Of a stretch of 24,000 bases of DNA, positions 267 through 22,864 are shown one piece after another. Within the stretch, counting starts at the first letter, position 1. Each line of letters begins with the position of its first letter. The translations under genes and the position numbers were made by a program. Where the stretch lies: assembly GCF_014653435.1 (NCBI RefSeq), contig NZ_BNAO01000001.1:507739-531738 (forward strand), written 5' to 3'. Below the pieces are notes generated by a model. That model had not been told where the DNA came from. It ran no database searches and was given only the letters and a program-made list of their open reading frames with translations. This DNA is from Alishewanella longhuensis (lineage in GTDB: Bacteria > Pseudomonadota > Gammaproteobacteria > Enterobacterales > Alteromonadaceae).

Positions 267-1079
267 ATGCGCGAACTGATTGAAAAAGCAACAAACCTGC
301 CGTCAGTACCTAAAGTATTACAAGAATTAATGGCAGGTTTTGAGAGTAATACAGTTAATGGCGAGCGCCTTGCTACCTTATTGGCCAATGATCAAGCTAT
401 TACCGCCAAGGTATTACGCTTGGCCAATTCTGCCAAATATGGTGGTAACCGTAAAGTGGGTTCGGTAAAAGATGCGGTGTTGGTATTGGGCACCGATACT
501 TTACGCACTCTGGTGCTCTCGGTAAGTTTGTCGGGTACTTTTAAACCCCTTCCCAAGTTTGACTTAAATGCCTATTGGCGCTATTCGTTTAGAATGGCTA
601 ACCGCTGTAAGTATATGGCTAAAATGTTAAAAGTAGACGCTGAAGTGGCTTATACCTGTGGTTTGTTGCACGGTATTGGCGAGTACCTGATCCATATAGT
701 TAAGCCAGAGCAAGCCATTTTGATTGATCAGGAAGTGGCAATGGGTAACCGCCGTCGCGAAACTGAGATTAAGCATTTAGGCTTTGATTTTACCCAAGCG
801 GGTGCTGAACTAGCGCGCTTTTGGCGCTTTCCTGAACCCATTGCCTTGGCAATAGAGCACCAATATACGCCGGTTTATGGTGGCAAATTAGATCCCTATG
901 CCTCTTTAATTATGTTTGGTCGTTATTTGCTAGAGCATGAAAACGATGTAAAAGCCGAGCGGTATGAGTTATTCCCTGCTAAGTTGGCACACGCTTTACA
1001 TTTAAAACTGGAAGATACTTACAAACATATTACGCAAATGCCAGATTTGGATGCAGGGATCGACGACTTATTAAGTTAG
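267..1079 (+). CDS. HDOD domain-containing signalling protein
   Basis: 270-aa ORF. The N-terminal stretch LPSVPKVLQELM...NDQAITAKVLRLANSAKYGG and the later GLLHGIGEYL are typical of HDOD (degenerate HD-related) domains. A strong intrinsic terminator follows the gene. Confidence 0.85.
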   Translation: MRELIEKATNLPSVPKVLQELMAGFESNTVNGERLATLLANDQAITAKVLRLANSAKYGGNRKVGSVKDAVLVLGTDTLRTLVLSVSLSGTFKPLPKFDLNAYWRYSFRMANRCKYMAKMLKVDAEVAYTCGLLHGIGEYLIHIVKPEQAILIDQEVAMGNRRRETEIKHLGFDFTQAGAELARFWRFPEPIALAIEHQYTPVYGGKLDPYASLIMFGRYLLEHENDVKAERYELFPAKLAHALHLKLEDTYKHITQMPDLDAGIDDLLS

Positions 1080-1191: not shown

Positions 1192-1809
1192 ATGGATAAT
1201 CGTATGGTTTATTTTGACCAACAGCAACGCCTTAGCCTGCAAAGCGGCATAGCTTTACCGGCGGCGCAATCGCTTCTGCAGTTGGCGGGCCAGCAGGCAG
1301 TGGCTAGTACTTTAATTGCCATACCTAAGCCTGCTAGCCTGTTGGCCGAGCTTGAGCGAGCCTATAGCCAAGGCTATGAACAGCACGCCTCTACCGAGTT
1401 TGAACTGCAAGGTATTGCGGTTGCCGGTAGTGGTGATCCTTTATTGCATTTGGATTTGCTGGCCGAGGTAATACCGGCTTTTAAAGCCCAGCGGCATGGT
1501 GTGCCAGTAACGCTGGTCACTTATGGTTTAGTGGCACCGGCAGAGGCTGAGGTGCTTTGTCAGCAATTATTGGCGCTGGAAGTTGAAAAACTCGAAGTGT
1601 ATTTGCCCGCCGCTAACCCGCCAGCGTATCAACAAGCGGTGCAGCCCAAGCAGTTGGGCTTTGCGGAAGTGTGCCAGTTTATTCATACAGCGGCAGAGGC
1701 GGGTTTACCAGTAAGTTGTTTTGCTTATGCGCCCGTGAAACAGGTCAGCGAGTTGCGGGGACTGGCGAAAGAGCTGGGCGCACGCGAGTTTCTGCTGATT
1801 GGTAGTTGA
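1192..1809 (+). CDS. Hypothetical protein with a radical-SAM-like core but no CxxxCxxC cluster motif
   Basis: The ORF opens at GTG 1180, but ATG 1192 lies 6 nt after GGAG (1182-1185) and is preferred. GIAVAGSGDPLLHLDLLAEVIPAF...VTLVTYGL resembles the GGEPLL / beta-strand region of radical SAM TIM barrels. The protein has only three scattered Cys and no CX3CX2C. Confidence 0.6.
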   Translation: MDNRMVYFDQQQRLSLQSGIALPAAQSLLQLAGQQAVASTLIAIPKPASLLAELERAYSQGYEQHASTEFELQGIAVAGSGDPLLHLDLLAEVIPAFKAQRHGVPVTLVTYGLVAPAEAEVLCQQLLALEVEKLEVYLPAANPPAYQQAVQPKQLGFAEVCQFIHTAAEAGLPVSCFAYAPVKQVSELRGLAKELGAREFLLIGS

Positions 1810-1819
1810 ACAATGGTTT

Positions 1820-1854
1820 AGTTGCCAGTTAGCCTTAATCGGCAACTGGCAGCT
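1820..1854. terminator. Hairpin between convergent genes (possible bidirectional terminator)
   Basis: 1820-1830 AGTTGCCAGTT pairs with 1844-1854 AACTGGCAGCT (11 bp, one G-U). An inner GCC/GGC extension is present. There is no clear U-tract on either strand. Confidence 0.35.
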
Positions 1855-1872
1855 AGTAACATAGTGTGTGGG

Positions 1873-2574
1873 TTAAATACCGCTAACCCAATCCGGTAAA
1901 AACTCGATAGCCCATAGCTCTAACACTTTATCAAAACCGCTAAAAATCATCAGTGCAATTAACAACAGGGCATAACCAAGTAGTTTGCGGCCAAATTTAC
2001 CTGAGGTGCGCAACTTGGACAATTTTACTCCAGCAGCATAACCAACGGCTACTAGTGGCAGGGCAGTACCCAGGCCGAAAGCCAGCATCACACTAAACGA
2101 CATAAGCATACTTTGCCCGGTAGATGCTAACGCAATAGCTGCACCTAAGGTTGGTCCTACGCAGGGTAACCATACTAGCCCTAGCGAGCCGCCCACCACA
2201 AACTGAAAAGCTGGGTGATCAGTGTTTTCGGTAACTTGCCCACCTGAGGGTAGGTGGCTGGTTAAGCGTGAAAGCAACATCGAAAACTGCTGATTTAGCC
2301 AATCGACACTTAGAACCAAACCCATAGCTAACATAAAGTACGCCGCAAAGGTGCGCATAATCTCTGGCCCTAAACTCGCACTAAGTAATAGGTACGTTAG
2401 CAGAGATCCGCCAAGAGCAAAGGTTAAGGCCAAACCTGCAGCTAAAAACCATACTCCGGTGCGCGACGCGCGCATTGCCGAAGCGGTAACGGCAGGGATC
2501 ATCGGCAGCACACAGGGAGAAAGCAGGCTTAGTAAGCCTGCTAACAGTGCTAAAGGGATAGCAGTAAACTCCAT
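1873..2574 (-). CDS. ccdA: Cytochrome c biogenesis / thiol-disulfide electron transporter, CcdA (DsbD beta-domain) family
   Basis: 233-aa polytopic membrane protein. It carries the two signature membrane-embedded cysteines, LSPCVLPMIP and WLPCVGPTLG. Its start is 2 nt downstream of the thioredoxin gene stop, on the same strand. Confidence 0.9.
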   Translation of the reverse strand: MEFTAIPLALLAGLLSLLSPCVLPMIPAVTASAMRASRTGVWFLAAGLALTFALGGSLLTYLLLSASLGPEIMRTFAAYFMLAMGLVLSVDWLNQQFSMLLSRLTSHLPSGGQVTENTDHPAFQFVVGGSLGLVWLPCVGPTLGAAIALASTGQSMLMSFSVMLAFGLGTALPLVAVGYAAGVKLSKLRTSGKFGRKLLGYALLLIALMIFSGFDKVLELWAIEFLPDWVSGI

Positions 2575-2576
2575 AA

Positions 2577-3005
2577 TTAATCAGCTTTCTTATCGTGTTC
2601 AGCTATTGCTGCGAAAACGTCTTTTTCTTTGGTTTGTGCTACCGTTAACCATAGTTGTTCTTCACCACGGTATAACACTAAGGTAGATTGCCGCGGTGCT
2701 TTAAAATAGGTTACCCACTCCTTTTGGTTATCAAAATCGACTTCTAGCACCAGTAGTTCACTTTGCGGATTTGCTGCTAAATAGTCGTTTAGTACTGCAT
2801 GCTGTTTACGGCAAGTAGGGCACCACGGCGCAAACACATCAATCAGAATAAGTTTGCCGTCCGCTTGGGCCTGGCGAAACACATCTTCAGTAAAGGGTTG
2901 TTTATGCTTGGTTAAATGCTCAGCGGAAGCAGTTGCTGGATTGAAAAAGAAGATAGCACTAAGAATAGCCAAAACAGCCAGTGTTGTAGTTAGGATTGTT
3001 TTCAT
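2577..3005 (-). CDS. Exported thioredoxin-fold protein (WCPTC active site)
   Basis: I chose the internal Met (codon 35 of the supplied ORF, ATG at 3005-3003). It gives a classic signal peptide, MKTILTTTLAVLAILSAIFFFNPATASA, and has a GAGG Shine-Dalgarno upstream. WCPTC is a thioredoxin CxxC motif. The gene is co-oriented and nearly abutting with ccdA. Confidence 0.85.
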   Translation of the reverse strand: MKTILTTTLAVLAILSAIFFFNPATASAEHLTKHKQPFTEDVFRQAQADGKLILIDVFAPWCPTCRKQHAVLNDYLAANPQSELLVLEVDFDNQKEWVTYFKAPRQSTLVLYRGEEQLWLTVAQTKEKDVFAAIAEHDKKAD

Positions 3006-3090
3006 TTGAACCTCGTTAGTTAATAAAGCGAGGTCAGTGTAAGGTGAGGGGCTGAGCAGGGCATCAGCCAGAACAACGGTGTAATCAACC

Positions 3091-3151
3091 AAAACACCGG
3101 TTGGCACCTCAGAATAAACTTAGGTGTTTCGGTCGATTAGGCCGGTGTTTT
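3091..3151. promoter_or_regulatory. Repeated GGTGTTT/AAACACC motif in the divergent trx / DUF2282 intergenic region (candidate operator)
   Basis: AAAACACCGG (3091-3100) is the exact reverse complement of CCGGTGTTTT (3142-3151). A further GGTGTTT sits at 3123-3129, exactly 21 bp upstream of the copy at 3144-3150. A degenerate GCACCT lies at about 3104-3109. Confidence 0.3.
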
Positions 3152-3217
3152 AGTCAGGTTAGAAATACGCTCCGTCCGCTATATTGAAAGCGTACTATCA
3201 ACCCAGAGGTCTAAAAC

Positions 3218-3583
3218 ATGAAGCAAACATCACTTACCAAAATGCTACTCGCAGGCATTGCAATAGCAAGCATCACTGGTGTCGTGCATGCTGCGCCCAA
3301 CAGTCAGCTAACTCTTGCTGAGGGGGCGCCGGAGTCCGCGCGGCAAGATTTTAAAAAATGGACGGCTGGTGAGCGTGTCATAGGGCGTAGAGATAAATGT
3401 TATGGCATTGCACTTGCAGGTCAAAATGATTGTCGCGCTGGTGCGGGCACAAGTTGCGAGGGCTCCTCCACTATCGATTTTCAGGGTAATGCTTGGACTT
3501 TCACGCCACGTGGTCTGTGCGAGCATTTGATTACACCACATGGGCCGGGAGCTAAAACTGAACTGGCGCGGAATAATCCCTAA
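3218..3583 (+). CDS. bufA: DUF2282-family Sec-exported Cys-rich RiPP precursor (bufferin BufA-like)
   Basis: GAGG lies 8 nt upstream of ATG 3218. The signal peptide [25 protein letters not shown]|AP is followed by [44 protein letters not shown]. The four conserved Cys are codons 61, 72, 80 and 101, starting at nt 3398, 3431, 3455 and 3518. The stop overlaps the next gene start (TAATG). Confidence 0.85.
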
Positions 3584-4455
3584 TGACAGACTTTAATGCG
3601 TGTGCCATTACCTCTATGTCACTGGGTTGCGGCATTAGTCTGAAAATGCTGCATTACCCAGCAGTATTAGAGTTGATGGACGAGGCATTATGGTTTGAAG
3701 TTCATACCGAAAACTATTGTGGTATCGGCGGTACGAAAATCGCTGCGCTGCGCGATGTTGCTGAGCGTTACCCAGTTAGCTTTCACGGTGTTGGCGCCTC
3801 GCTTGGGGGGCCTTCTCCGCTTTGCCAAACTCATCTGTCTCAGGTTAAACGGCTGGTTAAACAATTTAATCCTGCTCTTGTATCAGAGCATGCGGTTTGG
3901 TCGCGTCTGGAACAAAGCTACTTTGCCGATTTGTTACCTCTACCTAGATGTAGTCAGATTTTTCGAAATCTGGCCTCAGGTATTCAACAATATCAGGAGT
4001 GTATTCAGCGCCCAATCCTGATTGAAAATCCGACACATTATCTGAGTATGCGGCATGAGATGACAGAACCTGATTGGTTAATCGAATTGTGCAGGTTTAC
4101 AGGCTGCGGTGTGTTGCTGGATATTACCAATTTATTTCTAAGCGAAGTTAACTGCGGAATTAATGCCAGGGCTTACATTGATGCCATGCCCGCTTCGTTA
4201 ATCGGCGAGCTGCACATCGCTGGTTACTCGGTTGATCCGATTGAGGGTAACGCTTTGCTGATTGATAGCCATGATCATGCCCCGCAGCCAGAAGTATTAC
4301 AATTGCTGGCTTACGCATTGCGGCGCTTCGGTACTAGACCGGTGTTATTGGAGTGGGACGACAAAATCCCAACCTTAACTGAGCTGTTAGTACAGCGGAG
4401 AAAAATTGCAGCGCTTGTTAAGAGCGAAACACAAGAGAATCGTGCTGATGCGTGA
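3583..4455 (+). CDS. bufB: DUF692 / MNIO (multinuclear non-heme iron oxidase) family enzyme, BufB/MbnB-like
   Basis: 290 aa with DUF692 hallmark blocks: WFEVHTENY, FHGVGASLGG, VSEHAVW, LLPLP, ILIENP, LLDITNL, ELHIAGY, IDSHDH, LLEWD. It is translationally coupled on both sides. Confidence 0.9.
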   Translation: MTDFNACAITSMSLGCGISLKMLHYPAVLELMDEALWFEVHTENYCGIGGTKIAALRDVAERYPVSFHGVGASLGGPSPLCQTHLSQVKRLVKQFNPALVSEHAVWSRLEQSYFADLLPLPRCSQIFRNLASGIQQYQECIQRPILIENPTHYLSMRHEMTEPDWLIELCRFTGCGVLLDITNLFLSEVNCGINARAYIDAMPASLIGELHIAGYSVDPIEGNALLIDSHDHAPQPEVLQLLAYALRRFGTRPVLLEWDDKIPTLTELLVQRRKIAALVKSETQENRADA

Positions 4456-5224
4456 TTACTACACAGCCTTTGCGGATTTTTTGCAGCAGCAGAATGCTGC
4501 TGTATTGCAGCCCTGGTTGGCCTGTGCACCCGAGCAGGTTAGGCGGTTGCTGGTTTATCGTAACAGCAGCCTTAAGTCGTGTACGCAAGCACTGATAGCC
4601 AACTTCCCCATCAGCTGCACTTTACTCACGCAAGATGTCTTTCTGCCACTGGCAAGAGCCTTTGTGCTGCGGTGTCGACCAGTTAACACGGGTTTAGCCT
4701 GGTACGGGCAAGATTTCGCTGATTGGCTTGCTAGCAACCAAATAGTCCAATCTTATCCGTGGCTGCCTGATCTGGCAAAGCTGGAACGTGCCTGGCTAAA
4801 TAGTTTACTGGCTGTCGATGCAGAGCCGATAACCCCGGAACAACTGATCTCAAAAGCAGATGCAGGAGTCTCGCTTGAAACCCTACACCTTGGTTTGCAT
4901 CCCTCCGCCCAGCTACTTCAGGTTGAACACGATGTATGGCCTGTATTGTTGGCCGCGCGAGAACATCCACAACAAGTCCAACAAGTTGGAGTGTATGCAG
5001 CGAGGTTGAATTTACTGCTTTGGCGAGATCCTTCTTTTAACATCAGATGCCAGCTGGTTTATCCAGCTGAGTATGTCTTTTTGACAGCGCTGTTACAGCA
5101 TGGCACTTCGCTAGATTTGGCATGCAGCGCAGCAACCCGCGTTGATAAAAACTTGGACATTAGCCATTGGTTTGCTTTTTTGCTTGGCTCTGATCTTTTA
5201 ATTCCAGCTAATTCAGAGGAATAG
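4448..5224 (+). CDS. bufC: DUF2063-family partner protein (BufC-like)
   Basis: The ORF opens at 4406. ATG 4448 (MRDYYTAFADFLQQQ...) forms an ATGCGTGA stop/start overlap with the MNIO gene, and that N-terminus is typical of DUF2063. The length and position immediately after DUF692 match the conserved pairing. Confidence 0.75.
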   Translation: MRDYYTAFADFLQQQNAAVLQPWLACAPEQVRRLLVYRNSSLKSCTQALIANFPISCTLLTQDVFLPLARAFVLRCRPVNTGLAWYGQDFADWLASNQIVQSYPWLPDLAKLERAWLNSLLAVDAEPITPEQLISKADAGVSLETLHLGLHPSAQLLQVEHDVWPVLLAAREHPQQVQQVGVYAARLNLLLWRDPSFNIRCQLVYPAEYVFLTALLQHGTSLDLACSAATRVDKNLDISHWFAFLLGSDLLIPANSEE

Positions 5225-5227
5225 TAT

Positions 5228-5758
5228 ATGAGTTGGTACATGAATGTGCAAAGCAGGTATCTAACAATCTCTGGCTTGATACAGCGTTGGTTGGAGCCGC
5301 TGGTATTACTCTCGGCTCGTCTATTGATTGCGAAAGTGTTTTTATACTCTGGGCTGTCGAAATGGCAAGGCTTTCTGCAGTTCGACAGTAATAAGTATGA
5401 TCTTTTTTTATATGAGTTTTTTTGTCCGGAAACGATCCGGCCAGGAGCCTTGGTACTCTGTGATTCGGAAACTATGGAATATGCCCAGGGGGCTTTTGGC
5501 CAGCAGTTGGCGGAGCTATTGGCATTCTCTGCAGGGATCTTGGAGGTTTTTTTGCCGATATTGCTGGTTATCGGGCTACTCAGTCGTATTAGTGCGCTTG
5601 GTTTATTAACGATGACGTTGTTCATCCAATTAGCGGTATACCCCGATTGGGCGCATTTCTGGAATCCGGCTGCATGGTGGCTTGTCGTGCTAATGCTCCT
5701 AATGGTGCGTGGACCTGGATCATTATCTATAGACCGGCTTTTGAGATTGGAGCGTTAG
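5228..5758 (+). CDS. bufD: DoxX-family membrane protein (BufD-like)
   Basis: GAGGAA (5215-5220) precedes ATG 5228. The protein has 4 predicted TM segments and the DoxX-type block LLIAKVFLYSGLSKW. It starts 3 nt after the DUF2063 stop. Confidence 0.8.
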   Translation: MSWYMNVQSRYLTISGLIQRWLEPLVLLSARLLIAKVFLYSGLSKWQGFLQFDSNKYDLFLYEFFCPETIRPGALVLCDSETMEYAQGAFGQQLAELLAFSAGILEVFLPILLVIGLLSRISALGLLTMTLFIQLAVYPDWAHFWNPAAWWLVVLMLLMVRGPGSLSIDRLLRLER

Positions 5759-5765
5759 TTAATCT

Positions 5766-6686
5766 TTAGGAGTGTATTAGTCGGAAGTCACCAGGTGAAG
5801 TGCCGTGTTGTTGTTTAAAGAAGCGGATAAAGGCGGTGGCGGATTGATAACCGACTTGTTCGGCGATGCGATCTAAGCTTTGTTCGGTATGAATCAGTAA
5901 GTAACAGCTTTTTTGCAGCCGCAATTGGTCTAACAACGATTTCGCCGTCATTCCCATGATTTTATTGCAGCGCTCGGCAAAAGCACTTTTTGATAAATAG
6001 GCCAGCTCAGCCATATTATCCACAGTCCAATTGGCTTCTGGTTTATCCATCACGGCCAATACTACGCGTCTTAATGCCGTATCTTGCAATGCTGCCAGCA
6101 GCCCTTGGCTGATGTGTTCATCGGTAAGTACCTGGCGGAGTAAGTGCAATACAACGACATCACTTAAACGACTGATCGCGGCTTGGTAGCCCGGCTGACG
6201 CAGAATGGTTTCTTCCTGGATAAGTGCGACAAGGGGCGCTAAACGGCTCGATTGTCGATCTGCAGGTAAGTGAATATAGTCGGGCATAATTTGTAATACG
6301 TTCGCGGTTAATGGGGACTGAATGGCAATGTCGTAGCACACTAAGCCGCGTTCAATATGTTCAGGAACGCAGAAGTTTTGCAATTTAACCGGCGTGCTTT
6401 GCGCAGTAACCGGTTGGTCGCTAAGCCAATGGCGAAGGCCATGGCTAAAAAAGATCGCATCACCGGCACGCAGTTGTATCTGCTCGGAAAGGCGTCCAGG
6501 GATTGCCATCCATAAACTGCCTTGCGTCACAATATGTAGAGCAGCCTTATCAGATTTATCACTTAGCAAATTCCAATTATCGCAAAAGCCTGATTCAAAG
6601 TGCAGCGCCGATCCAAATGCCAGCTGAGCCAACAGCTGATCTAATGCTTCCGGTGTTTCGGTTGATAAGGGCGTTGTTTTGGTCAT
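5766..6686 (-). CDS. AraC-family transcriptional regulator (N-terminal cupin-like sensor plus C-terminal dual HTH)
   Basis: 306 aa. The C-terminus, WTVDNMAELAYLSKSAFAERCNKIMGMTAKSLLDQLRLQKSCYLL...IAEQVGYQSATAFIRFFKQQHGTSPGDFR, is a canonical AraC HTH pair. The N-terminal HFESGFCDNW...AGDAIFFSHGLRHWL looks cupin-like. Confidence 0.9.
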   Translation of the reverse strand: MTKTTPLSTETPEALDQLLAQLAFGSALHFESGFCDNWNLLSDKSDKAALHIVTQGSLWMAIPGRLSEQIQLRAGDAIFFSHGLRHWLSDQPVTAQSTPVKLQNFCVPEHIERGLVCYDIAIQSPLTANVLQIMPDYIHLPADRQSSRLAPLVALIQEETILRQPGYQAAISRLSDVVVLHLLRQVLTDEHISQGLLAALQDTALRRVVLAVMDKPEANWTVDNMAELAYLSKSAFAERCNKIMGMTAKSLLDQLRLQKSCYLLIHTEQSLDRIAEQVGYQSATAFIRFFKQQHGTSPGDFRLIHS

Positions 6687-6732
6687 TGTGCGTTGTTGCC
6701 TGTCTTCCTACACTGCATCAACTAGTTAGTCT

Positions 6733-6778: not shown

Positions 6779-7228
6779 ATGACTCAAATTCTGCTGGCCC
6801 GCCCCCATCCTTTTATTGTGTCTGAAATGGTGCCATTTCTGCAGCAAAATAAAATACAAGCGCAAAAGCTGGAACAGCTCTCCGAGTTGGATACTAAGCT
6901 TAATCAAAGCAAAGCTGCAGTTATTTCGTTGGCCCTTTCATCGCCACTAGCTGCTACAGCAGAAGAGGTGTTAGCGGCAATAAAGCAGCGCGCACCCAGG
7001 ATGCCACTTGTATTTGCCAGTATGCTTCCACTAGAGCGTGTGCAAAAGCAGCTGCTGCAAATACTACAGCCGTACTTTAACTCACCTGTGCTTTTAGCGG
7101 TGGATACCAGAGTAGGTGTTGCTGAGCCTACTTCAACTAATACAGTGCTTTACTTTAGTAAAGCTGATTTAGCTGATATGCAAAAGCGTAATACCTTTGC
7201 GAAGTTACTGCATGGGCATGCACGCTAG
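6779..7228 (+). CDS. Hypothetical protein (149 aa), first gene of the HD-GYP/aminolipid block
   Basis: The supplied ORF (6503-7228) overlaps the araC-family gene on the opposite strand by 184 nt. The internal ATG 6779 (MTQILLARPHPFIV...) lies just after AGGTG and removes that overlap. I recognise no family. Alternating beta/alpha-like segments suggest a small alpha/beta fold. Confidence 0.55.
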   Translation: MTQILLARPHPFIVSEMVPFLQQNKIQAQKLEQLSELDTKLNQSKAAVISLALSSPLAATAEEVLAAIKQRAPRMPLVFASMLPLERVQKQLLQILQPYFNSPVLLAVDTRVGVAEPTSTNTVLYFSKADLADMQKRNTFAKLLHGHAR

Positions 7229-7256
7229 CTGATTAATACAAGCGAGGAACCATATT

Positions 7257-8183
7257 ATGCTTAACTGGTTTCAACGGCAGAAGTATATTGTGCCAACTAC
7301 AGTTGATGCTAACCAACTGAGTAAGGAGTTATTAGCAAGTTTAATGGTAATGGCCTGGTTTGTTGAAGCTAAAGACCCTTATACCGGCGGGCATTTATGG
7401 CGGGTGTCGCGATACGCTAACTTATTGGCGCTAGCAGGTGGCTTACCTGAAGTCGATGTAGCAAGAATTACCCTTGGCGCTTTCTTGCATGATTTAGGCA
7501 AGGTTGCGGTGCCAGACGCTATATTGGGGAAAACGACTAAATTGACTGAAGAGGAATTTGCGGTAATTAAAACCCATCCAGAGGCTGGAGGGCGTTTATT
7601 GGCTGGGCATCCGTTGGGCCACTTGGTGTTGCCTGCTGTTGAATTGCACCACGAGCGTCCTGACGGGAAAGGTTACCCCTATGGTTTAACCGCCGGCATG
7701 ATTCCGATAGATGCGGCTATTGTTGGTATTTGTGATGCCTTTGATGCCATGACAAGTTTACGACCATATCGTAAACCGCTGCCCTTAGCTGAGGTTGTTG
7801 CTATTTTAGCGGAGGGCGCAGGAAGTCAGTTTAATCCATTTTGGGTTGGTCGCTTTATTGAGCTGGTAGAGCAAGATCACTTTGCGAATATTATGGGGCA
7901 TACCGATGATGGTATTCCGCTGCATACCTGCCCGCATTGTGGTCCTACTGTGCAGCAACAACGGCATCAACATGCTGGTGATTTGCTGGCATGTGGTCTG
8001 TGCCATAGTGAGATGCAGTTAGTGGAAAAGCAGGAGCAGCTTACCGTAACCGTAACGGGTAAGAAAGCTGCGGCACATTTATTACAACCACAGGCTGACA
8101 ATAGGTTAATTAAAGCGGTGATTGAAGCCTCGTTAGCGCAAATTCCTATTTCTCAACTCGTAAGGTTTACTGCTCATGCGTGA
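7257..8183 (+). CDS. HD-GYP domain c-di-GMP phosphodiesterase with C-terminal CxxC-N17-CxxC zinc-ribbon-like tail
   Basis: GAGGAA SD. Motifs present: HDLGK, THPEAG, HHERPDGKGYPYGL (HHE plus GYP) and CDAFDAMTS. CPHC is at 7929-7940 and CGLC at 7992-8003. There is no REC or other N-terminal sensor domain. Confidence 0.9.
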   Translation: MLNWFQRQKYIVPTTVDANQLSKELLASLMVMAWFVEAKDPYTGGHLWRVSRYANLLALAGGLPEVDVARITLGAFLHDLGKVAVPDAILGKTTKLTEEEFAVIKTHPEAGGRLLAGHPLGHLVLPAVELHHERPDGKGYPYGLTAGMIPIDAAIVGICDAFDAMTSLRPYRKPLPLAEVVAILAEGAGSQFNPFWVGRFIELVEQDHFANIMGHTDDGIPLHTCPHCGPTVQQQRHQHAGDLLACGLCHSEMQLVEKQEQLTVTVTGKKAAAHLLQPQADNRLIKAVIEASLAQIPISQLVRFTAHA

Positions 8184-8400
8184 TCTGTTCCGTGCTTTAG
8201 CTAGACTGCAAATTATTTTAGCTGCAATAAAGGTGTCGTTAGTAGTGGGCACACTACTGAATATCATTAACCAATATGAAGCCATATTTGCAGAGCAGCC
8301 ATGGCGCTGGGGATTGGCATTAATGAATTATCTAGTGCCTTATGCGGTGTCGTCCTATAGCGGTGCACTACAACTAATCAAAAGGACTGATCGATGCTAA
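8176..8400 (+). CDS. Small two-TM membrane protein, NrtS-like (putative nitrate/nitrite transporter family)
   Basis: 74 aa. KVSLVVGTLLNIINQ...NYLVPYAVSSYSG resembles the NrtS family signature as I recall it (VVGT.LN.INQ ... VPY.VS.YS). It has an ATGCGTGA overlap with the HD-GYP stop and an ATGCTAA overlap with the next gene. Confidence 0.55.
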   Translation: MRDLFRALARLQIILAAIKVSLVVGTLLNIINQYEAIFAEQPWRWGLALMNYLVPYAVSSYSGALQLIKRTDRC

Positions 8401-11968: not shown

Positions 11969-12267
11969 CCCACAACTAACAGCTACAAGTCATAGCCATT
12001 TTATAGCTTGTATAAATTAGCCATCAGCTACCTACTTTGCACAACGTAAGAGTGCTGATTAATCAAAAGTAAAGTTTGATTTAGCGCAAGCGTTCTTCAA
12101 ATAAAAACAGCGATTAAATTTATGTTGTTGTTTTTTATTTATTTTATTCTTTTTCTCTTGGTGGCAATTAACCCTTTTGGGTATTGACTGTGTTGGTTGC
12201 TCACTATATAACCATGTTTAAATTGTGGTTTATCCGCCAATTATACAAATACCATGCAGGGAGCCGC

Positions 12268-13851
12268 ATGCAAAAAAATATGCCTGTTACCGGACAAGAA
12301 CAAGCTGTGCCTGAGCAGGCTAATATCTTGTCTACTACCGATTTACAAGGCCGCATCAAATACGTGAATGATAGCTTTGTGCAGATTAGTGGTTTTAGCA
12401 AAGCAGAATTATTAGCGCAGAATCATAATATTGTGCGGCATCCTGATATGCCGCCGGAAGTGTTTCGGCAGTTCTGGCAGCGGCTAAAAAAGGGTAGCCC
12501 TTGGATGGGCATTGTGAAAAACCGCTGCAAAAATGGCGATCATTATTGGGTAAACGCCTACGTCACGCCGATTAGCCATCAGGGAAAAATAACAGAATAC
12601 CAATCGGTGCGCCGCAAAGCTGAGCCGGTACAAGTTGCCAGAGCAGAGCAACTTTATCAGGCGATAGCGCAAAAAAAATCTTTGCGCCAATTAAAGCCAG
12701 GTTGGTCGTTTTCCTCTAAGTTGTTGCTGTTAACCATACTGCCAGTATTGAGTGGTGTGCTACTTGGACATTGGATAGCCTTACCTTATGCAAGCTTGTT
12801 ATTGCCATTAATCGGATTACTGTTAGCCGTCATGTTAAGTAGGCAGTTGCTGAAACCATTGCAACAGCTTTGCCGACAAAGTCGCAGTATTAGCCAAGAT
12901 GCGGTTGCGCGTTATGTTTATACCGGGCGTAATGATGATATCGGTCAGTTAATGTTGGCATTCCGCTGCCTGGAAGCCGAAACGGCTGGAGTGGTTGGGC
13001 GGGTGGCTGATTCGGCGAACTCATTGGCTGCTGGTATTGGCCAGTTAACCGGCTCGGTAAGTGCTTCAAGGCAGGAAATTCATGCCCAGTTTGCTGAAAC
13101 CGAGCAGATAGCCGCGGCTATTAATCAGTTAGCTACTAGCGTTCAGGATGTAGCTGGCAGCGCCCGCTCTTCGTCAGAGGCTGCGGATAGTGCCTATAAT
13201 CAGGCGCAAAGTGGCAAGGGGGTCGTTGATGTCAGTTTGCTGGCAGCTAAACAGTTGCAACAAGAGCTGACCGCGGCGCAACAAGACGTGCTTAAAGTTG
13301 CCGCGAGTAGCGAAGATATTCTGCAAATTTTAGATATTATTGGTGCCATCGCTGAGCAAACGAACTTACTGGCATTAAATGCTGCTATTGAAGCAGCTAG
13401 GGCCGGAGAAGCCGGGCGTGGTTTTGCTGTTGTTGCCGATGAAGTAAGGTCTTTGGCAACCCGCACGCAAGCCGCTACGGGCAATATTCAACAAAAAATT
13501 TCTCGTTTACAGCAAGATACCACTGCTGCTGTTGCTGCCTTAACACAAAGTAATGCGGGGGCCGAACGTTGTGCCACTACCAGTGCTCATACTGCACAGG
13601 TTCTGGAGCAAGTGTTAGCGGCAGTAAAGAGTATTACTGAACAAAATCAGCAAATTGCGGCGGCGGTTGAACAGCAAAGCCAGGTTGCGGAAGAGGTTAG
13701 TAAAAATATTACCAGTATTCGTGATTTAGCCGAGCGTAGCTTACTAAGCGCCGATATGACAGTGTCAGCAAGCGATGAGATGCATGGTATTACTCAGGGC
13801 TTTGATGCGCTAACCAGGCAGTTTTGGTCCAGGCAGCAGGTTAGGGTGTAG
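12268..13851 (+). CDS. aer: Aer-like aerotaxis/energy-taxis receptor (N-terminal PAS, TM hairpin, HAMP, MCP signalling domain)
   Basis: ATG 12268 follows AGGGAG (12257-12262). The ORF opening at 12184 is a TTG extension. The N-terminus closely parallels E. coli Aer: [22 protein letters not shown]...[54 protein letters not shown] hairpin follows ([16 protein letters not shown]...[14 protein letters not shown]), then the conserved MCP core [37 protein letters not shown]. Confidence 0.9.
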
Positions 13852-13853
13852 TT

Positions 13854-15962
13854 ATGCTAGTTGAATGTCAGCACGATCTAAAACAACTGCTTAATTTGTT
13901 TTCGGCTAATGTACCGGGGTTCTTCTTTCAATTGCTTCGGGCAGCCTCAGGGCAATACAAGCTATTACTGGTTTCTGACAACGCCGAGCAGGCACTGGGT
14001 ATACCGATTTGCTCTTTGTCTGAACAGGCTAAATTGGCGTTGTCGCGGGTGCATGCTGACGATCAGGCCGCGCTGCAGCAAAGCTTAGCGTACTCGGCTC
14101 AGCACATCTCTCCCTGGAGTCTGCAATTTCGGTACTTACACCCTGCTGGTGGCCAACGTTGGTTTGAAGGGCATGCTACGCCCACACAACATGAAGAGCA
14201 CAGTTTGTTATGGCATGGCTATATCAATGATATTACGCCGATCAAATTGAATGAATTGGCCTTGGCCGAGTATGCCAGTCAGCATCGCGAGATTGTTGAT
14301 AATATCCTTGATGCTATTATCACTATTGATGAGCATGGCATTATAGAAACCTTTAGTAAGGCCGCCAGTCGCATTTTTGGCTATCAAGCTGCAGAAGTTA
14401 TTGGTGAGAATGTTGCGCTATTAATGCCAGAGCCATATAGCAGTACTCATAATCACTATATGCAAAACTATCGCCAAACGGGTGAAGCCAAAATTATTGG
14501 GAAAAGTCGGGAAACTCAGGGGCTACGCAAGGATGGGCGCCTGTTTAATATGGAGCTGCGGATTGCCCGCATCCAACAAGCTGATCGTTATAAATTTATT
14601 GGTATGGTGCGCGATTTATCAGAGCGTAAGCGTACCGAAGTATTAATTGAAAAGCTGGCCTTTTATGATCCCCTTACGCAATTACCCAACAGACGCTTGC
14701 TAAAACAACGTTTAACCGCCGCTTTGCAAGAGTGTAAGCTGCAAAAAGGGCTGGGGGCTTTGTTGTATATAGATTTAGATAATTTTAAGCACTTAAATGA
14801 TTCTTTAGGGCATGGCATCGGCGATCAGTTGCTGCGCCAGGTTGCCAGCCGTTTGCAGCAAAGTGTGCGCCAGCAAGATACGGTGGCAAGGCTAGGTGGT
14901 GACGAGTTTATTATTTTACTACTCAACCTGTCATCTGAGCAGCAAACGGCGGTGCAACAAGCTGAAACCGTTGCTGAAAAGGTGCGGGTGGCGCTCAATA
15001 CGCCTTTTACGCTGGAACAGCTGAGTTATGTAAGCAGCCCGAGTATCGGCATTACGCTGTTTTCTGATGATAATAATTCTATAGACGAGTTATTGCAGCA
15101 GGCAGATTTAGCCATGTATCAAGCCAAAGCTGCTGGTAAAAATCAAACGCATTTGTTTGACGTGGCCATGCAGATAAAGGCATCGGCTCGAACTCAATTA
15201 GAGAGTGAGTTGCGTCAGGCCATTACTAAACAACAATTGCAATTGTACTTTCAGGGGCTGCATGATCAACATGGTCATTTAGTTGGCGCCGAAGTCTTGC
15301 TACGCTGGTTTCATCCTGAGCTTGGCTCTGTAAGCCCTGCGGTCTTTATCCCTATCGCAGAAGAGAGTGGTCTTATTTTTGAGATCGGTAGTTGGGTAAT
15401 AGAGCAAGCCTGCCAGCAATTAGCGCAGTGGCTTGAGCGAGCTCCTGACTTGCAGTTAAAATTGTCTATTAATATCAGTGCACGGCAATTCCATCAGGAC
15501 GGTTTTTTACCGCAGGTGCTACGCACGCTAGAGCGTTTTAACAAAGTCCGTCAGGCACTGCAATTTGAATTAACCGAAAGCATCTTGGTCTCCCGGGTTG
15601 AGGAGGTGGTAACCAAGATGAATGTCCTAAGAAATTATGGCATTGCTTTTGCGCTAGATGATTTTGGTACGGGCTACTCGTCACTCAGTTATTTAAAGCG
15701 CTTGCCTTTAGCCTTGCTGAAAATAGATAGAAGTTTTATTGATGACATCTTGCATGATCCAAACGATGCCGCTATCGCCAGTACCGTTATAGCGCTGTCA
15801 AAAGCGCTGGGGTTAGATGTGATTGCCGAAGGAGTAGAAACCCTGGCCCAGCGCAATGCCCTGGCCGAGCTGGGTTGCTATTTCTACCAGGGTTATTACT
15901 TTAGCAAGCCATTACCTGCCAGCGAGTTTATGCAGCTACACTGTCCCGAGCTGGCGCATTAA
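13854..15962 (+). CDS. PAS-PAS-GGDEF-EAL c-di-GMP turnover protein
   Basis: Starts 2 nt after the aer-like stop. It has two PAS-like regions; the second reads IVDNILDAIITIDEHGIIETFSKAASRIFGY. The GGDEF domain has RQQD (an I-site RxxD 5 residues before the motif) and RLGGDEF. The EAL domain has EVLLRW, DDFGTGYSSLSYL, KIDRSFI, AEGVET and QGYYFSKP. Confidence 0.9.
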   Translation: MLVECQHDLKQLLNLFSANVPGFFFQLLRAASGQYKLLLVSDNAEQALGIPICSLSEQAKLALSRVHADDQAALQQSLAYSAQHISPWSLQFRYLHPAGGQRWFEGHATPTQHEEHSLLWHGYINDITPIKLNELALAEYASQHREIVDNILDAIITIDEHGIIETFSKAASRIFGYQAAEVIGENVALLMPEPYSSTHNHYMQNYRQTGEAKIIGKSRETQGLRKDGRLFNMELRIARIQQADRYKFIGMVRDLSERKRTEVLIEKLAFYDPLTQLPNRRLLKQRLTAALQECKLQKGLGALLYIDLDNFKHLNDSLGHGIGDQLLRQVASRLQQSVRQQDTVARLGGDEFIILLLNLSSEQQTAVQQAETVAEKVRVALNTPFTLEQLSYVSSPSIGITLFSDDNNSIDELLQQADLAMYQAKAAGKNQTHLFDVAMQIKASARTQLESELRQAITKQQLQLYFQGLHDQHGHLVGAEVLLRWFHPELGSVSPAVFIPIAEESGLIFEIGSWVIEQACQQLAQWLERAPDLQLKLSINISARQFHQDGFLPQVLRTLERFNKVRQALQFELTESILVSRVEEVVTKMNVLRNYGIAFALDDFGTGYSSLSYLKRLPLALLKIDRSFIDDILHDPNDAAIASTVIALSKALGLDVIAEGVETLAQRNALAELGCYFYQGYYFSKPLPASEFMQLHCPELAH

Positions 15963-15980
15963 CCTAAGCGGTGCGTTAAA

Positions 15981-21537: not shown

Positions 21538-22512
21538 ATGTTACTAAAAAACTTTAATGTTTTGGTATTAGATGACGTTATCCTAATGTGTGATTTCCTC
21601 TATGGTGTGGCCAATAAGGTTGCAGGATGTAAGGCATTTAAGGCGTTGGATGCCAAAACTGCCAGCGAAGTTTTGGAACACGAAAATATCGATTTATTAA
21701 TAACTGATATCGAGTTGAAAGGCCCAAGCGGTTTGGAGTTGCTCTCAAAAGTCCGCTCTGGGCTTTTTGCTAATACAGCTCATGATATTCCCATCATCAT
21801 TTTCTCAGGCAATGCTTATCGTGAGTTGATTCAACAATGTATTTTATTTGATGTGAATGATTTTTTGGCAAAGCCGTTAACCGCCGACCAATTAAGCAAG
21901 AAAATTCAGCATCATTTGCGACATGAAAAGCTTATCCAGCCCGCTGCGCACTATCTGGAAATGAAACAACGTATAGAGACACCTGCTGTTCAAGGTGATG
22001 AGGAAGAGGAGCGTCGCTTTCGAGTTGCGATAGTCAGAGAGCTGGCCCAAAAAGCAGAGCAGGAAGAAGCGGAGTTAGATGAGAATGGTCAACAGTTAGA
22101 GAAACGTGATTTTTTGTATTGGCCTGAAGATGCGACAACTGGCTACTATCAGCTAGATCGACGTTTGCGGAATTTGGCTTATAACTTGAGTTGTTTTCAC
22201 AATGTATTTATCAACAATTGCAAACCGGTAGCTATTGAAGCTGAGCGTAAAAGAGCATGTGCCGCAGCAGATTATTTATTGCATATTGTAAAGTCGATGC
22301 GACAGCGCGAACAGCGGCCGGAATTTTGGAGCATGCTGCAGATACGCCTGGATAAACTGAGCGCGTTAATGGCAGAGCTCGCTGTGATTAATGTAAAACA
22401 TCATAATAACATTTTGGCGCTTTTGAAGAAATTCGCTTATTGGTGGATGCAAACCTGCAATAAGCCCTTAATTCAGCGGACGGATGGCAGTGATGATAAA
22501 TCTTCCAGATGA
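21538..22512 (+). CDS. Response regulator: N-terminal REC domain plus about 190-aa C-terminal domain of unknown function
   Basis: REC hallmarks are present: VLVLDD, DLLITDIELKGPSGLELL (phospho-Asp), IIIFSG and LAKP. An acidic linker follows (QGDEEEERR...EQEEAELDENG), then a helical region I cannot assign (YQLDRRLRNLAYNLSCFHNVF...YLLHIVKSMRQ...). Confidence 0.8.
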   Translation: MLLKNFNVLVLDDVILMCDFLYGVANKVAGCKAFKALDAKTASEVLEHENIDLLITDIELKGPSGLELLSKVRSGLFANTAHDIPIIIFSGNAYRELIQQCILFDVNDFLAKPLTADQLSKKIQHHLRHEKLIQPAAHYLEMKQRIETPAVQGDEEEERRFRVAIVRELAQKAEQEEAELDENGQQLEKRDFLYWPEDATTGYYQLDRRLRNLAYNLSCFHNVFINNCKPVAIEAERKRACAAADYLLHIVKSMRQREQRPEFWSMLQIRLDKLSALMAELAVINVKHHNNILALLKKFAYWWMQTCNKPLIQRTDGSDDKSSR

Positions 22513-22855: not shown

Positions 22856-22864
22856 GGAGAGTCC

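Follow-up and report, generated by a model that had tools for sequence, protein, structure and literature searches.

Introduction

No known group of MNIO RiPPs is larger than the bufferins, whose catalogued clusters number in the thousands (PMC11626156, PMC12452194). Clusters of the Buf1 type, whose products are also termed captophorins, were described between 2024 and 2026 and have been recorded from thousands of genomes. The founding member, buf1 of Caulobacter vibrioides (bufA1B1C1D1, CCNA_03363-03366; PMC11626156), encodes a Sec-targeted DUF2282 precursor containing four cysteines, an MNIO, a DUF2063-RRE protein and a DoxX protein. Its peptide showed a -10 Da shift, corresponding to two thiooxazoles and one disulfide, and bound copper, whereas DoxX was dispensable; copper tolerance is the only phenotype demonstrated for a bufferin (PMC11626156). 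The central cysteines are modified and the outer cysteines form the disulfide (PMC12452194), and 5-thiooxazoles are broadly installed by MNIO-PME1 clusters (PMC13097082). The gold-induced (gig) operons known from Cupriavidus metallidurans and Legionella pneumophila have homologous gene content and respond to metal stress, with Au and Cu as inducers (PMC5413113; cited in PMC11626156). Other systems, namely, Hvf/oxazolin of Haemophilus influenzae, gonophorin and fontiphorin, combine thiooxazoles, copper binding and induction by oxidants such as HOCl (PMC11252979, PMC13097082).

Gene content of the operon

We analysed a 24-kb stretch of DNA from Alishewanella longhuensis, referred to here as the window. 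Positions 3218 to 5758 of its + strand carry four translationally coupled genes whose families and order are those of Caulobacter buf1. A preliminary description had recorded four tightly packed, co-directional genes, and the open reading frames at 3218-3583, 3583-4455, 4448-5224 and 5228-5758, all on the + strand, agree with this. The junctions were also as described: the bufB start overlaps the bufA stop in TAATG at 3581-3585, the bufC start overlaps the bufB stop in ATGCGTGA at 4448-4455, and doxX is preceded by a GAGGAA Shine-Dalgarno sequence, a TAG stop and a 3-nt gap before its ATG at 5228. Pfam scores were judged against gathering cutoffs and NCBIfam models against their own cutoffs. 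All four products exceeded their Pfam cutoffs, with 71.4 bits for DUF2282 (cutoff, 22.4), 268.4 bits for MbnB_TglH_ChrH (25), 53.5 bits for DUF2063 (27.2) and 48.2 bits for DoxX (23.6).

Placement of the locus in the DUF2282-MNIO-DUF2063-DoxX bufferin (gig-type) system, as in the preliminary description, is supported by these four models, by MNIO_BufB as the top NCBIfam match, by a predicted BufC fold like that of the structurally solved MNIO partners TglI and NGO1945, and by retention of the four-gene core in approximately 28 of 33 related loci. The latter are long-form loci (see below) of gamma- and alphaproteobacteria, and across all 33 we found no other recurrent neighbour of the core. On sequence grounds, positions 3218 to 5758 are a canonical Buf1-type bufferin (captophorin) biosynthetic operon, an additional member of a described group. 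It should be noted that public annotation of these genes (DUF2282, DUF692, hypothetical protein) trails the literature.

Among the open reading frames of at least 100 aa in the 24 kb, copA-, cueR- and cusRS-like genes were absent, as had been stated previously. No metal-resistance genes were found near the operon among the window's reading frames, which sets the locus apart from the metal-induced gig operons.

The precursor and its long-form clade

The first gene, bufA (3218 to 3583, + strand), encodes a Buf1-type bufferin precursor of 121 aa that matches WP_189429661.1 of A. longhuensis exactly. DUF2282 covers residues 59 to 104; a newer Pfam release names this family (PF10048) "BufA1." A Sec signal peptide cleaved after VHA at residue 25 had been proposed, and reading of the sequence agreed: Lys2 and Lys8 precede a hydrophobic core at residues 9 to 23 (mean Kyte-Doolittle value, 2.3), V-H-A occupies positions -3 to -1, and by the same reading the signal peptide has no lipobox cysteine. 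Relatives share an A-x-A cleavage site followed by PN. The four-cysteine core C-X10-C-X7-C-X20-C is likewise present, as Cys61, Cys72, Cys80 and Cys101, each of which aligned with an invariant or near-invariant cysteine column in 33 relatives, and G, N, D and other core residues were invariant as well.

The mature peptide consists of 96 aa, compared with 68 residues in Caulobacter. The difference lies in an N-terminal extension of about 30 residues, here a conserved stretch of 33 (residues 26 to 58) ahead of the DUF2282 core. This precursor had been called atypically long, a view that did not hold: its 121 aa put it at the upper edge of the published range of 80 to 120, and about 80 of the 98 BufA relatives recovered from the database with this long query are 115 to 127 aa long and carry the same conserved extension. 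Judged by these alignments, the segment of about 30 residues between signal peptide and first cysteine defines a long-form clade in gamma- and alphaproteobacteria. We interpret it as a structured addition specific to this clade, which may act as a built-in recognition segment, and not as a peculiarity of this gene. As a weaker point of novelty, it could serve as a noncleaved recognition segment for the RRE domain of BufC. The structure model of BufA was moderately confident (pLDDT, 64.5), with the Cys loop at residues 69 to 84 below 50.

Modification enzymes and the DoxX protein

The second gene, bufB (3583 to 4455, + strand), encodes a multinuclear non-haem iron oxidase (MNIO/DUF692) of 290 aa. 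The DUF692 blocks listed in the preliminary description (WFEVHTENY, FHGV, SEH, ENP, LLDITN, HIAGY and DSHDH) are all present in its translation. The closest solved structure was 3BWW (E value, 1e-29), and the His/Glu/Asp/Asn-containing blocks FHG, SEH, ENP, DITN, HIAG, DSH and LEWD aligned with counterparts in both 3BWW and MbnB; we take these to be the carriers of the metal ligands in MbnB-type enzymes. The best NCBIfam model was MNIO_BufB at 295.6 bits, just below its equivalog cutoff of 310, followed by HvfB at 180.

The product of bufC (4448 to 5224, + strand; 258 aa from ATG) is a DUF2063 and RRE-like partner of PME type 1. Its Pfam match to NGO1945_C fell below threshold, and searching the PDB by sequence alone gave no match. 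Its AF2 model (pLDDT, 79.8; pTM, 0.74), submitted to Foldseek, matched TglI (8HCI/8HI7; E value, 2e-7) and NGO1945 (3DEE; E value, 6e-6; TM score, 0.70) over nearly its full length, spanning about 226 to 254 alignment columns.

The operon is closed by bufD (5228 to 5758, + strand), which encodes a DoxX-family membrane protein of 176 aa; the DoxX gene holds the same position in 28 long-form loci. The Pfam match extends over residues 27 to 138 for 84 profile positions, and Cys66 and Cys78 lie in a stretch of about 28 aa inserted behind the first transmembrane segment. Of 29 DoxX proteins encoded by long-form clusters, 83% have this cysteine pair. In most long-form loci across genera, DoxX is more similar in identity to the window protein than BufB and BufC are to theirs. 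DoxX is a conserved membrane accessory of these clusters.

An MNIO, a DUF2063 (PME1) protein and DoxX are also shared with the Hvf/oxazolin, gonophorin and fontiphorin systems. Those captophorins derive from precursors with EGKCG repeats, in contrast to the folded DUF2282 domain here, and the NCBIfam Hvf models scored below their cutoffs at this locus (HvfB, 180 versus 360; HvfC, 48 versus 142; HvfX, 40 versus 80).

Proposed biosynthesis

By homology to Caulobacter Buf1, the following route can be proposed. Cytoplasmic BufB, an iron enzyme, would act together with BufC, its DUF2063/RRE partner, and use O2 to convert Cys72 and Cys80 to 5-thiooxazoles. BufA would then be exported by Sec and cut by signal peptidase after Ala25, Cys61 and Cys101 would form a disulfide, and the 96-residue periplasmic peptide would sequester copper through its thiooxazoles. 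The Cys61-Cys101 disulfide and the two thiooxazole sites are predicted by homology (PMC11626156, PMC12452194), and thiooxazole formation on the central cysteines with a copper-binding product is inferred from PMC11626156 and PMC13097082. The predicted product, with two thiooxazoles, one disulfide and periplasmic copper chelation, matches that of Caulobacter buf1 in chemistry and role. The biology given in the preliminary description, namely, thiooxazoles made from cysteine, Sec export and copper sequestration, agrees with PMC11626156.

BufB might instead install another modification, such as an oxazolone-thioamide or a change to other residues, on the long-form precursor, or the product might bind a metal other than copper. 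MNIO reactions are diverse and the heterocycle assignment is disputed (PMC13097082; bioRxiv 10.64898/2026.06.05.730506), fusion of some bufferin domains to MerC hints at other metals (PMC12452194), and BufB falls slightly under the BufB equivalog cutoff. We nevertheless regard this as very improbable: all characterised MNIO-PME1 (DUF2063) clusters yield 5-thiooxazoles (PMC13097082), and long and short forms have essentially the same Cys loop, LAGQNDC.AGAGTSC.

Predicted bipartite operators

Genes for an ECF sigma factor and its anti-sigma factor NrsF are common accessories of Buf1 clusters, although not part of their core (PMC12452194), and in Caulobacter the buf1 operon is under the control of SigF, an ECF sigma factor, and NrsF, an anti-sigma factor. 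No Sigma70_r2, Sigma70_r4 or NrsF domains were found among the reading frames of the window. No sigma-70-type -35/-10 pair was called in the intergenic region upstream of bufA. This region contains a bipartite site comprising two GGTGTTTYRGTY half-sites 21 nt apart, followed after 24 nt by a -10-like hexamer. The operator motif occurs five times in the window (0.26 expected), and the full bipartite module occurs exactly three times, compared with a mean of 0.003 in 300 shuffles. Half-site spacing, orientation and distance to the -10 element are identical at all three sites.

The first copy is the predicted activator-dependent bufA promoter (3123 to 3185, + strand), with half-sites GGTGTTTCGGTC at 3123-3134 and GGTGTTTTAGTC at 3144-3155 and, 24 nt after the second, a -10-like TATATT at 3180-3185. 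The second, which mirrors it as inverted repeat I1, is the predicted divergent trx-ccdA promoter (3036 to 3098, - strand), with a half-site at 3087-3098, a degenerate copy at 3066-3077 and, 24 nt further on, a -10-like TACACT at 3041-3036. The third (6652 to 6714, + strand) overlaps the start codon of araC, with half-sites at 6652-6663 and 6673-6684 and, 24 nt beyond, TACACT at 6709-6714, and it faces orf149 and an HD-GYP gene.

The loci L001, L002 and L082-84, from related genera, retain the arrangement before both bufA and trx-ccdA. The module occupies the same three positions in L001 and L002, whereas none of the other 78 genome-derived loci contains it, and it is identical in L082-84. L090 has a pattern match at the position corresponding to the bufA promoter. 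The copy at the araC start is kept in L001, L002 and L082-84 and in L094, L112, L114 and L116, and among metagenomic relatives the module always accompanies the araC 5' end. As the araC-start copy lies within coding sequence, its conservation could be partly at the protein level.

The adjacent AraC/Cupin_6 regulator

Downstream of the operon, and convergent with doxX (stop codons 7 nt apart), lies a gene for an AraC-family regulator of 306 aa (5766 to 6686, - strand) with an N-terminal Cupin_6 domain (113.5 bits) and HTH_18 (70.4 bits). Cupin_6 and an AraC helix-turn-helix are the architecture of RclR, the HOCl-sensing regulator of Escherichia coli, and of its Pseudomonas aeruginosa namesake (PMC7464077, PMC7950407). 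The best NCBIfam model, chlor_reg_RclR, reached 93.5 bits, far below its cutoff of 400, and its alignment with E. coli RclR covers 272 aa at 24% identity (E value, 7e-22); we therefore call it RclR-like in architecture only. RclR activates adjacent stress genes, and the same is predicted here, with bufferin, trx-ccdA and HD-GYP genes as targets in place of rclABC and rclX.

Based on its adjacency and on the copy of the site at its own start codon, the AraC/Cupin_6 protein is a candidate regulator binding the predicted sites. It would bind the two direct-repeat half-sites and activate the bufA promoter. The operon appears to be driven from an activator-dependent promoter by the adjacent regulator, with its own predicted operator, rather than by an ECF sigma/anti-sigma pair. 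Regulation and inducer had both been left open in the preliminary description. For regulation, a conserved putative operator now connects buf with the neighbouring AraC/Cupin_6 gene and with the divergent thioredoxin-ccdA unit.

The motif could be real and yet be bound by a regulator encoded elsewhere, or be a promoter element of an alternative sigma factor, leaving the adjacent AraC protein a bystander. Consistent with this, the araC-proximal copy lies within coding sequence and the araC-buf linkage is confined to one lineage. On the other hand, the motif pair is found at the araC 5' end in all relatives that include this end, even in L116, where no orf149 or HD-GYP homologue was found. The constant geometry of the three sites also argues against a bystander, and two direct repeats spaced by 21 nt fit an AraC/XylS dimer better than a sigma -35/-10 pair. 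Direct repeats spaced in this way and abutting the -35 position are typical of AraC/XylS activators. We consider a bystander role rather unlikely and retain the adjacent protein as the candidate regulator. Linkage of trx-ccdA and araC to buf was found only in the Alishewanella/Arsukibacterium lineage, so that the adjacency could reflect common descent and not a functional tie.

Neighbouring genes in the putative regulon

The divergent unit consists of a gene for an exported or membrane-anchored thioredoxin with a WCPTC motif (2577 to 3005, - strand; 142 aa; Pfam Thioredoxin, 37.6 bits) and the co-oriented ccdA, with the shared operator upstream. A thioredoxin start at GTG 3107, giving the longest reading frame, was rejected in favour of ATG 3005, as the gene caller gives 142 aa in relatives. 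The ccdA gene (1873 to 2574, - strand) encodes a CcdA-like DsbD transmembrane domain protein of 233 aa (DsbD_TM, 45.6 bits; DsbD_2, 45.2 bits) with the Cys motifs SPCVLP and LPCVGP, which is likely the electron donor for the thioredoxin. This pairing distinguishes the locus from Caulobacter buf1. Scs (suppressor of copper sensitivity) systems of the ScsB/ScsC type, which are linked to envelope copper stress, pair a membrane electron shuttle resembling DsbD with a thioredoxin-fold protein of the periplasm. We presume the trx-ccdA pair to be comparable to such periplasmic reductase systems by description, although its CcdA-type membrane component is minimal and has no periplasmic domains.

A probable third target unit (6779 to 8183, + strand) comprises orf149 (6779-7228), which matched no Pfam family, and a gene for an HD-GYP c-di-GMP phosphodiesterase (7257-8183; HD_5, 104 bits) with the motif HHERPDGKGYP. 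For this unit, the gene caller predicts products of 149 aa and 308 aa in relatives. L001 and L002 additionally carry an AhpC/TSA peroxiredoxin-like gene directly 3' of doxX. The operator shared between bufA, trx-ccdA and the araC start would define a small envelope regulon responding to copper or oxidant stress.

Copper or oxidants as possible signals

In this lineage, the bufferin might mainly defend against thiol-reactive oxidants of the HOCl/HOSCN type, or against oxidants and copper together, with the RclR-like regulator sensing them through its cysteines. RclR is activated by oxidation of Cys21-Cys89 (PMC7464077). The regulator has the RclR architecture, and its invariant Cys117 aligns with the redox-active Cys89; Cys21, however, aligns with Ser32, the nearest cysteine being Cys35, three residues away, and the score of 93 bits against a 400-bit cutoff also weakens the parallel. 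The predicted co-regulated partners, a periplasmic thioredoxin and CcdA, fit oxidant defence, as does the peroxiredoxin-like gene after doxX in L001 and L002. Moreover, the related H. influenzae MNIO-DUF2063-DoxX operon is induced by HOCl (PMC7907618), thiooxazole pathways are frequently induced by oxidative stress (PMC13097082), and RclA ties HOCl to copper toxicity (PMC7527725). Cupin domains, on the other hand, can bind metals directly, which makes a copper signal equally possible, and copper tolerance is the sole bufferin phenotype demonstrated so far. We judge a mainly oxidant-directed role to be on the unlikely side. It partly overlaps with the explanation that we prefer.

That explanation, in which a canonical Buf1 operon is combined with biosynthesis deduced by homology and with regulation by the AraC/Cupin_6 protein as suggested by the sequence, is in our view highly probable when taken as a whole. 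A further proposal is tentative and somewhat short of an even chance: the Alishewanella/Arsukibacterium bufferin operon may have moved from ECF-sigma control into an autoregulated RclR-like AraC regulon together with trx-CcdA, HD-GYP and, in sister genera, the peroxiredoxin-like gene.

Implications

As a cluster, the operon adds little, since bufferins are already the largest family of MNIO-modified peptides and this is a typical member. What is new is that its sequence suggests activation by an adjacent regulator resembling an oxidant sensor, in place of the stress sigma factor that is usual for such operons. Should this hold, bufferin clusters would have their first described nonsigma regulator and operator, and a single oxidant- or copper-sensing switch would link the chelation of copper and the repair of periplasmic thiols to c-di-GMP signalling.

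With three predicted operators and a candidate sensor, the locus offers a testable regulatory model for a bufferin operon without a sigma/anti-sigma pair, which could show whether bufferins respond to oxidants besides copper. The long-form Buf1 clade, with its extended precursor and a DoxX protein carrying a conserved cysteine pair, could help to explain precursor recognition and the role of DoxX, two questions left by the bufferin papers.

Organization and identity of the bufferin cluster

Four consecutive ORFs on the + strand coincided with the gene positions proposed in the preliminary description: bufA at 3218-3583 (121 aa), bufB at 3583-4455 (290 aa), bufC at 4448-5224 (258 aa counted from ATG), and doxX at 5228-5758 (176 aa). 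The junctions were likewise as described, with TAATG at 3581-3585 between bufA and bufB, ATGCGTGA at 4448-4455 between bufB and bufC, and GAGGAA, a TAG stop, and then three bases preceding the doxX ATG. The profile searches it had called for placed all four proteins above their Pfam cut-offs: DUF2282 in BufA (71.4 bits, cut-off 22.4), MbnB_TglH_ChrH in BufB (268.4 bits, cut-off 25), DUF2063 in BufC (53.5 bits, cut-off 27.2), and DoxX in the product of the fourth gene (48.2 bits, cut-off 23.6). In a newer Pfam release, PF10048 is named "BufA1" and PF09836 "HvfC_N". BufA, BufB, and the nearby AraC-type regulator are exact matches to the Alishewanella longhuensis records WP_189429661.1, WP_189429663.1, and WP_189429669.1, which are publicly annotated as DUF2282, DUF692, and AraC family only. 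An Arsukibacterium protein with 74% identity to BufA carries the NCBI name "BufA1 family periplasmic bufferin-type metallophore." Together, the Pfam matches, the top-scoring MNIO_BufB model, the fold of BufC, and the gene order support the assignment of the locus as a DUF2282-MNIO-DUF2063-DoxX bufferin cluster.

Scanning one genome per species yielded at least 589 relatives. Among the best 80 of these loci, the order BufA-BufB-BufC-DoxX was recurrent, and no other gene family recurred beside the four core genes, including at 33 loci with a long-form precursor. Published work likewise names these four genes as the core. The portions of the supplementary files of PMC12452194 available to us contained neither the accessions of this cluster nor the genus name. 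In three gammaproteobacterial MAGs (L006, L007, and L020), a second, more distant MNIO gene, 34 to 35% identical to BufB, was located approximately 1.8 to 2.2 kb upstream of bufA, just 5' of a long-form buf1 cluster. In L006 it was accompanied by a second DUF2063 gene. These loci may represent an adjacent second bufferin-type cluster.

Maturation proteins and predicted product

All DUF692 sequence blocks quoted in the preliminary description were found in BufB. Its best NCBIfam model was MNIO_BufB ("bufferin maturase") with 295.6 bits, just under the equivalog cut-off of 310 and far above the scores of HvfB (180), ApyH, MbnB, and ChrH. The nearest solved structure was 3BWW (E 1e-29). The blocks FHG, SEH, ENP, DITN, HIAG, DSH, and LEWD, in which the metal ligands of MbnB-type enzymes are expected to lie, align with the corresponding blocks of 3BWW and MbnB.

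For BufC, PDB sequence and profile searches returned no solved relative, and a fold search alone succeeded. The AlphaFold model used (pLDDT 79.8, pTM 0.74) was built on a shallow alignment, since a word-indexed homologue search gave only five proteins. It matched the MNIO partner TglI (8HCI/8HI7; E 2e-7 to 5e-7) and, over nearly its full length, the DUF2063 protein NGO1945 (3DEE; E 6e-6, TM 0.70). With 258 aa, BufC also fits the range of "PME type 1" proteins, which are DUF2063-RRE fusions of 250 to 260 aa (PMC12452194).

The buf1 operon of Caulobacter vibrioides has the same genes in the same order; there, BufB1 together with BufC1 is both required and sufficient for turning two BufA1 Cys into 5-thiooxazoles (PMC11626156). 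The product shows a shift of -10 Da, corresponding to two heterocycles and one disulfide; it is exported by the Sec pathway, cleaved at the signal-peptidase site, and chelates Cu(I) and Cu(II) (PMC11626156). In bufferins, modification falls on the central Cys, and a disulfide joins the first Cys to the last (PMC12452194). By analogy, Cys72 and Cys80 of A. longhuensis BufA are predicted to be modified and Cys61 and Cys101 to form a disulfide. Formation of 5-thiooxazoles has since been extended to all characterized MNIO-PME1 clusters, for which the class name captophorins was proposed (PMC13097082). We infer the same thiooxazole chemistry, as well as copper binding, for A. longhuensis.

In the region of residues ~48 to 92, DoxX contains an insertion of about 28 residues after its first transmembrane segment, and Cys66 and Cys78 of this insertion are conserved in 83% of DoxX proteins from long-form clusters. 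Although DoxX is dispensable in Caulobacter (PMC11626156), its identity to the window protein across genera exceeds that of BufB or BufC in most long-form loci.

A long form of the BufA precursor

The signal peptide and the four-Cys spacing noted earlier for BufA were recovered. The N terminus has two lysines and a hydrophobic core of 15 residues that averages 2.3 on the Kyte-Doolittle scale, then V-H-A up to residue 25, followed by Cys61, Cys72, Cys80, and Cys101 in the spacing C-X10-C-X7-C-X20-C. For the predicted mature peptide, residues 26 to 121, the calculated monoisotopic mass is 10,194.96 Da. No NCBIfam model matched BufA even at an E value of 10. Since P0003, a protein named BufA1 by NCBI, was likewise unmatched, this silence reflects a gap in the library and is not counter-evidence on family membership. 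PDB sequence and profile searches yielded no solved relative of BufA. Its AlphaFold model (pLDDT 64.5) was confident for residues 31 to 60 (block means of 80 to 87), including a helix at residues 39 to 49, and fell below 50 in the Cys loop spanning residues 69 to 84.

The precursor had been described as atypically long. This did not hold: DUF2282 proteins comprise 80 to 120 residues (PMC11626156), and 121 aa lies at the upper edge of that range, not beyond it. A homologue search returned 98 proteins, about 80 of which measured 115 to 127 aa, although the query is itself a long form and biases the search toward such proteins. From the cleavage site to the first Cys, long forms share the pattern A-x-A, cleavage, (K/A)PNxQL(S/T)(L/I)..AP....F..W..GE...GR(K/R)DKCYG, and many end in a C-terminal ELxRNNP, whereas short forms (87 to 107 aa) lack this segment before the first Cys. 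Long forms occur in the gammaproteobacterial genera Alkalimonas, Arsukibacterium, Arenicella, Paraglaciecola, Pseudoalteromonas, Marinomonas, Reinekea, and Neptunomonas and also in alphaproteobacteria (Hyphomonadaceae and Algimonas). BufB proteins of long-form clusters are 42 to 61% identical to the window BufB, compared to 36 to 42% for short-form clusters. The corresponding values for DoxX are mostly 49 to 64%, with a few at 37 to 44%, against 31 to 40% or no match. The shared BufA segment and the closer BufB and DoxX indicate that the long-form clusters are a coherent clade.

As the extension holds no conserved His, Met, or Cys, it is unlikely to provide metal ligands. Its probable role is either structural or that of a recognition segment that escapes cleavage. 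The latter reading fits with Caulobacter, where the signal peptide is dispensable and recognition of the precursor involves the core (PMC11626156).

Genes surrounding the operon

No sigma/anti-sigma pair was present among the window ORFs of at least 100 aa and, as previously noted, neither were copA-, cueR-, or cusRS-like genes. Upstream of bufA and divergent from it are genes for an exported thioredoxin with a WCPTC motif (2577-3005, - strand, 142 aa) and a CcdA-type DsbD transmembrane protein (1873-2574, - strand). The thioredoxin start was assigned to the ATG at 3005, which is preceded by GAGG and matches the calls in relatives; the longest ORF (GTG at 3107, 176 aa) overruns the promoter region and was rejected. 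Downstream, doxX converges with araC (5766-6686, - strand), which encodes an AraC-type regulator containing a Cupin_6 domain. Comparison of 33 long-form loci showed that linkage of trx-ccdA and araC to the buf genes is lineage specific, and both were therefore rejected as general members of bufferin clusters.

The stops of doxX and araC lie 7 nt apart (5756-5768), and read-through from the buf operon would run antisense to araC. A terminator scan found no convincing terminator 3' of doxX and called no terminator-like hairpin between the two genes; an Rfam search of the window gave no matches. In the sister-genus loci L001 (4106-4672) and L002 (11601-12158), a gene for an AhpC/TSA peroxiredoxin-like protein (185 to 188 aa, CPFC motif) lies between doxX and araC. 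Neither the window nor the closest Alishewanella-like contigs have this gene, and in those contigs, too, 7 nt separate the two stops.

Beyond araC, the + strand carries orf149 (6779-7228), which belongs to no Pfam family, and a gene for an HD-GYP phosphodiesterase with a Cys-rich C-terminal stretch, CPHCGP...CGLC (7257-8183). The longest version of orf149, from TTG at 6503, was rejected as an over-extension into araC. A small ORF without a Pfam family (8176-8394, about 73 aa) overlaps the HD-GYP stop and is kept in L001 and L002 (55% identity), being called as 74 aa in relatives; the L001 homologue appeared hydrophobic by eye.

Genes related to c-di-GMP and signaling are abundant in the window (267-1079, 7257-8183, and 12184-17318). 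They encode HDOD and HD-GYP proteins, a PAS-MCP, a PAS-GGDEF-EAL protein, and one further GGDEF protein; genes for response regulators and an Hpt protein follow at 21538-23221. The position directly beyond ccdA is occupied in the window by orf1180 and an HDOD gene, whereas three Alishewanella-like metagenomic contigs (L082 to L084, ~1544-4519) carry a Tn3-family transposase gene there, with KfrA_N or integrase genes nearby.

A repeated operator module and its proposed regulon

A promoter scan called no sigma-70-type promoter upstream of bufA. When this region was aligned with those of the two closest genera, the conserved blocks proved to be a repeated 12-mer. Allowing up to one mismatch, the window contains five copies of the sequence GGTGTTTYRGTC, compared to 0.26 expected, and no shuffle out of 100 had as many. 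In the full module, the half-site GGTGTTTYRGTY is followed by 9 nt, a second half-site, 24 nt, and then a -10-like hexamer, which places the half-sites 21 nt apart. Exactly three copies of the module are present, against a mean of 0.003 in 300 shuffles. The first (3123-3185, + strand, hexamer TATATT) lies 5' of bufA and the second (3098-3036, - strand, TACACT) 5' of trx-ccdA. The third (6652-6714, + strand, TACACT) covers the araC ATG at 6686 and faces orf149 and the HD-GYP gene, both of which lie downstream of it.

All three modules recur at homologous positions in L001, a MAG labeled Bacterioplanes, and in L002, an Arsukibacterium MAG, and eight of the nine hexamers in these three genomes fit TAnnnT. 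The module was found in none of the other 78 of the best 80 genomic bufferin loci. In close metagenomic relatives the modules are identical, and every metagenomic contig holding the 5' end of araC has the module there, a conservation partly constrained by coding. One such relative, L116 (1-1061), keeps the module over the araC start; the gene following araC is DinB, and no homologue of orf149 or the HD-GYP gene was found on it. Scanning metagenomes for the bipartite operator gave 32 loci. Of these, 27 were unrelated contigs, nearly all of them with near-identical tandem half-sites. The five from the Alishewanella lineage were all at already known positions, yielding no new regulon members. The shuffles and the distribution among relatives indicate that the module is real and specific to this lineage.

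Two direct repeats spaced at 21 nt and bordering a weak -35 region make up the layout that is classic for AraC/XylS activators. From sequence pattern and conservation, the AraC protein is predicted to activate bufABCD, trx-ccdA, and orf149/HD-GYP, and we lean toward it as the regulator of the operon. Transcription would be expected to begin about 7 nt beyond positions 3185, 3036, and 6714. The module over its own start suggests autoregulation of araC.

Candidate signals of the AraC regulator

The best NCBIfam match of the regulator was the HOCl sensor RclR, with 93.5 bits against a cut-off of 400, and its identity to E. coli RclR was 24% over 272 residues. Oxidation of its Cys21 and Cys89 switches RclR on (PMC7464077). 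In the alignment, Cys89 falls on Cys117, a residue that is invariant in the three orthologues, and Cys86 falls on Cys106. Cys21 aligns with Ser32, the nearest Cys being Cys35, three residues off. On the basis of the score and the Cys21 position, a true RclR orthologue was rejected. Which adjacent genes an RclR homologue controls varies between bacteria; in Pseudomonas aeruginosa, where the identity is 30%, an example is rclX (PMC7950407). A parallel between rclX and the additional gene of L001 and L002 was dismissed, since the latter is of AhpC/TSA type and RclX is AhpD-like and non-homologous (PMC7950407).

That the regulator senses an oxidant is possible, if rather doubtful. Its proposed coregulated partners, thioredoxin and CcdA, hint at envelope thiol or oxidant stress, as does the peroxiredoxin-like gene directly 3' of doxX in L001 and L002. 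Moreover, the related MNIO-DUF2063-DoxX operon of Haemophilus influenzae is induced by HOCl via RpoE2 (PMC7907618), and thiooxazole pathways are frequently induced by oxidative stress (PMC13097082). Alternatively, a metal may act directly as the signal through the cupin domain of the regulator.

By 2026 the bufferin cluster itself counts as textbook knowledge; the proposed regulatory wiring and the long-form clade add to it in a small way that is open to testing.
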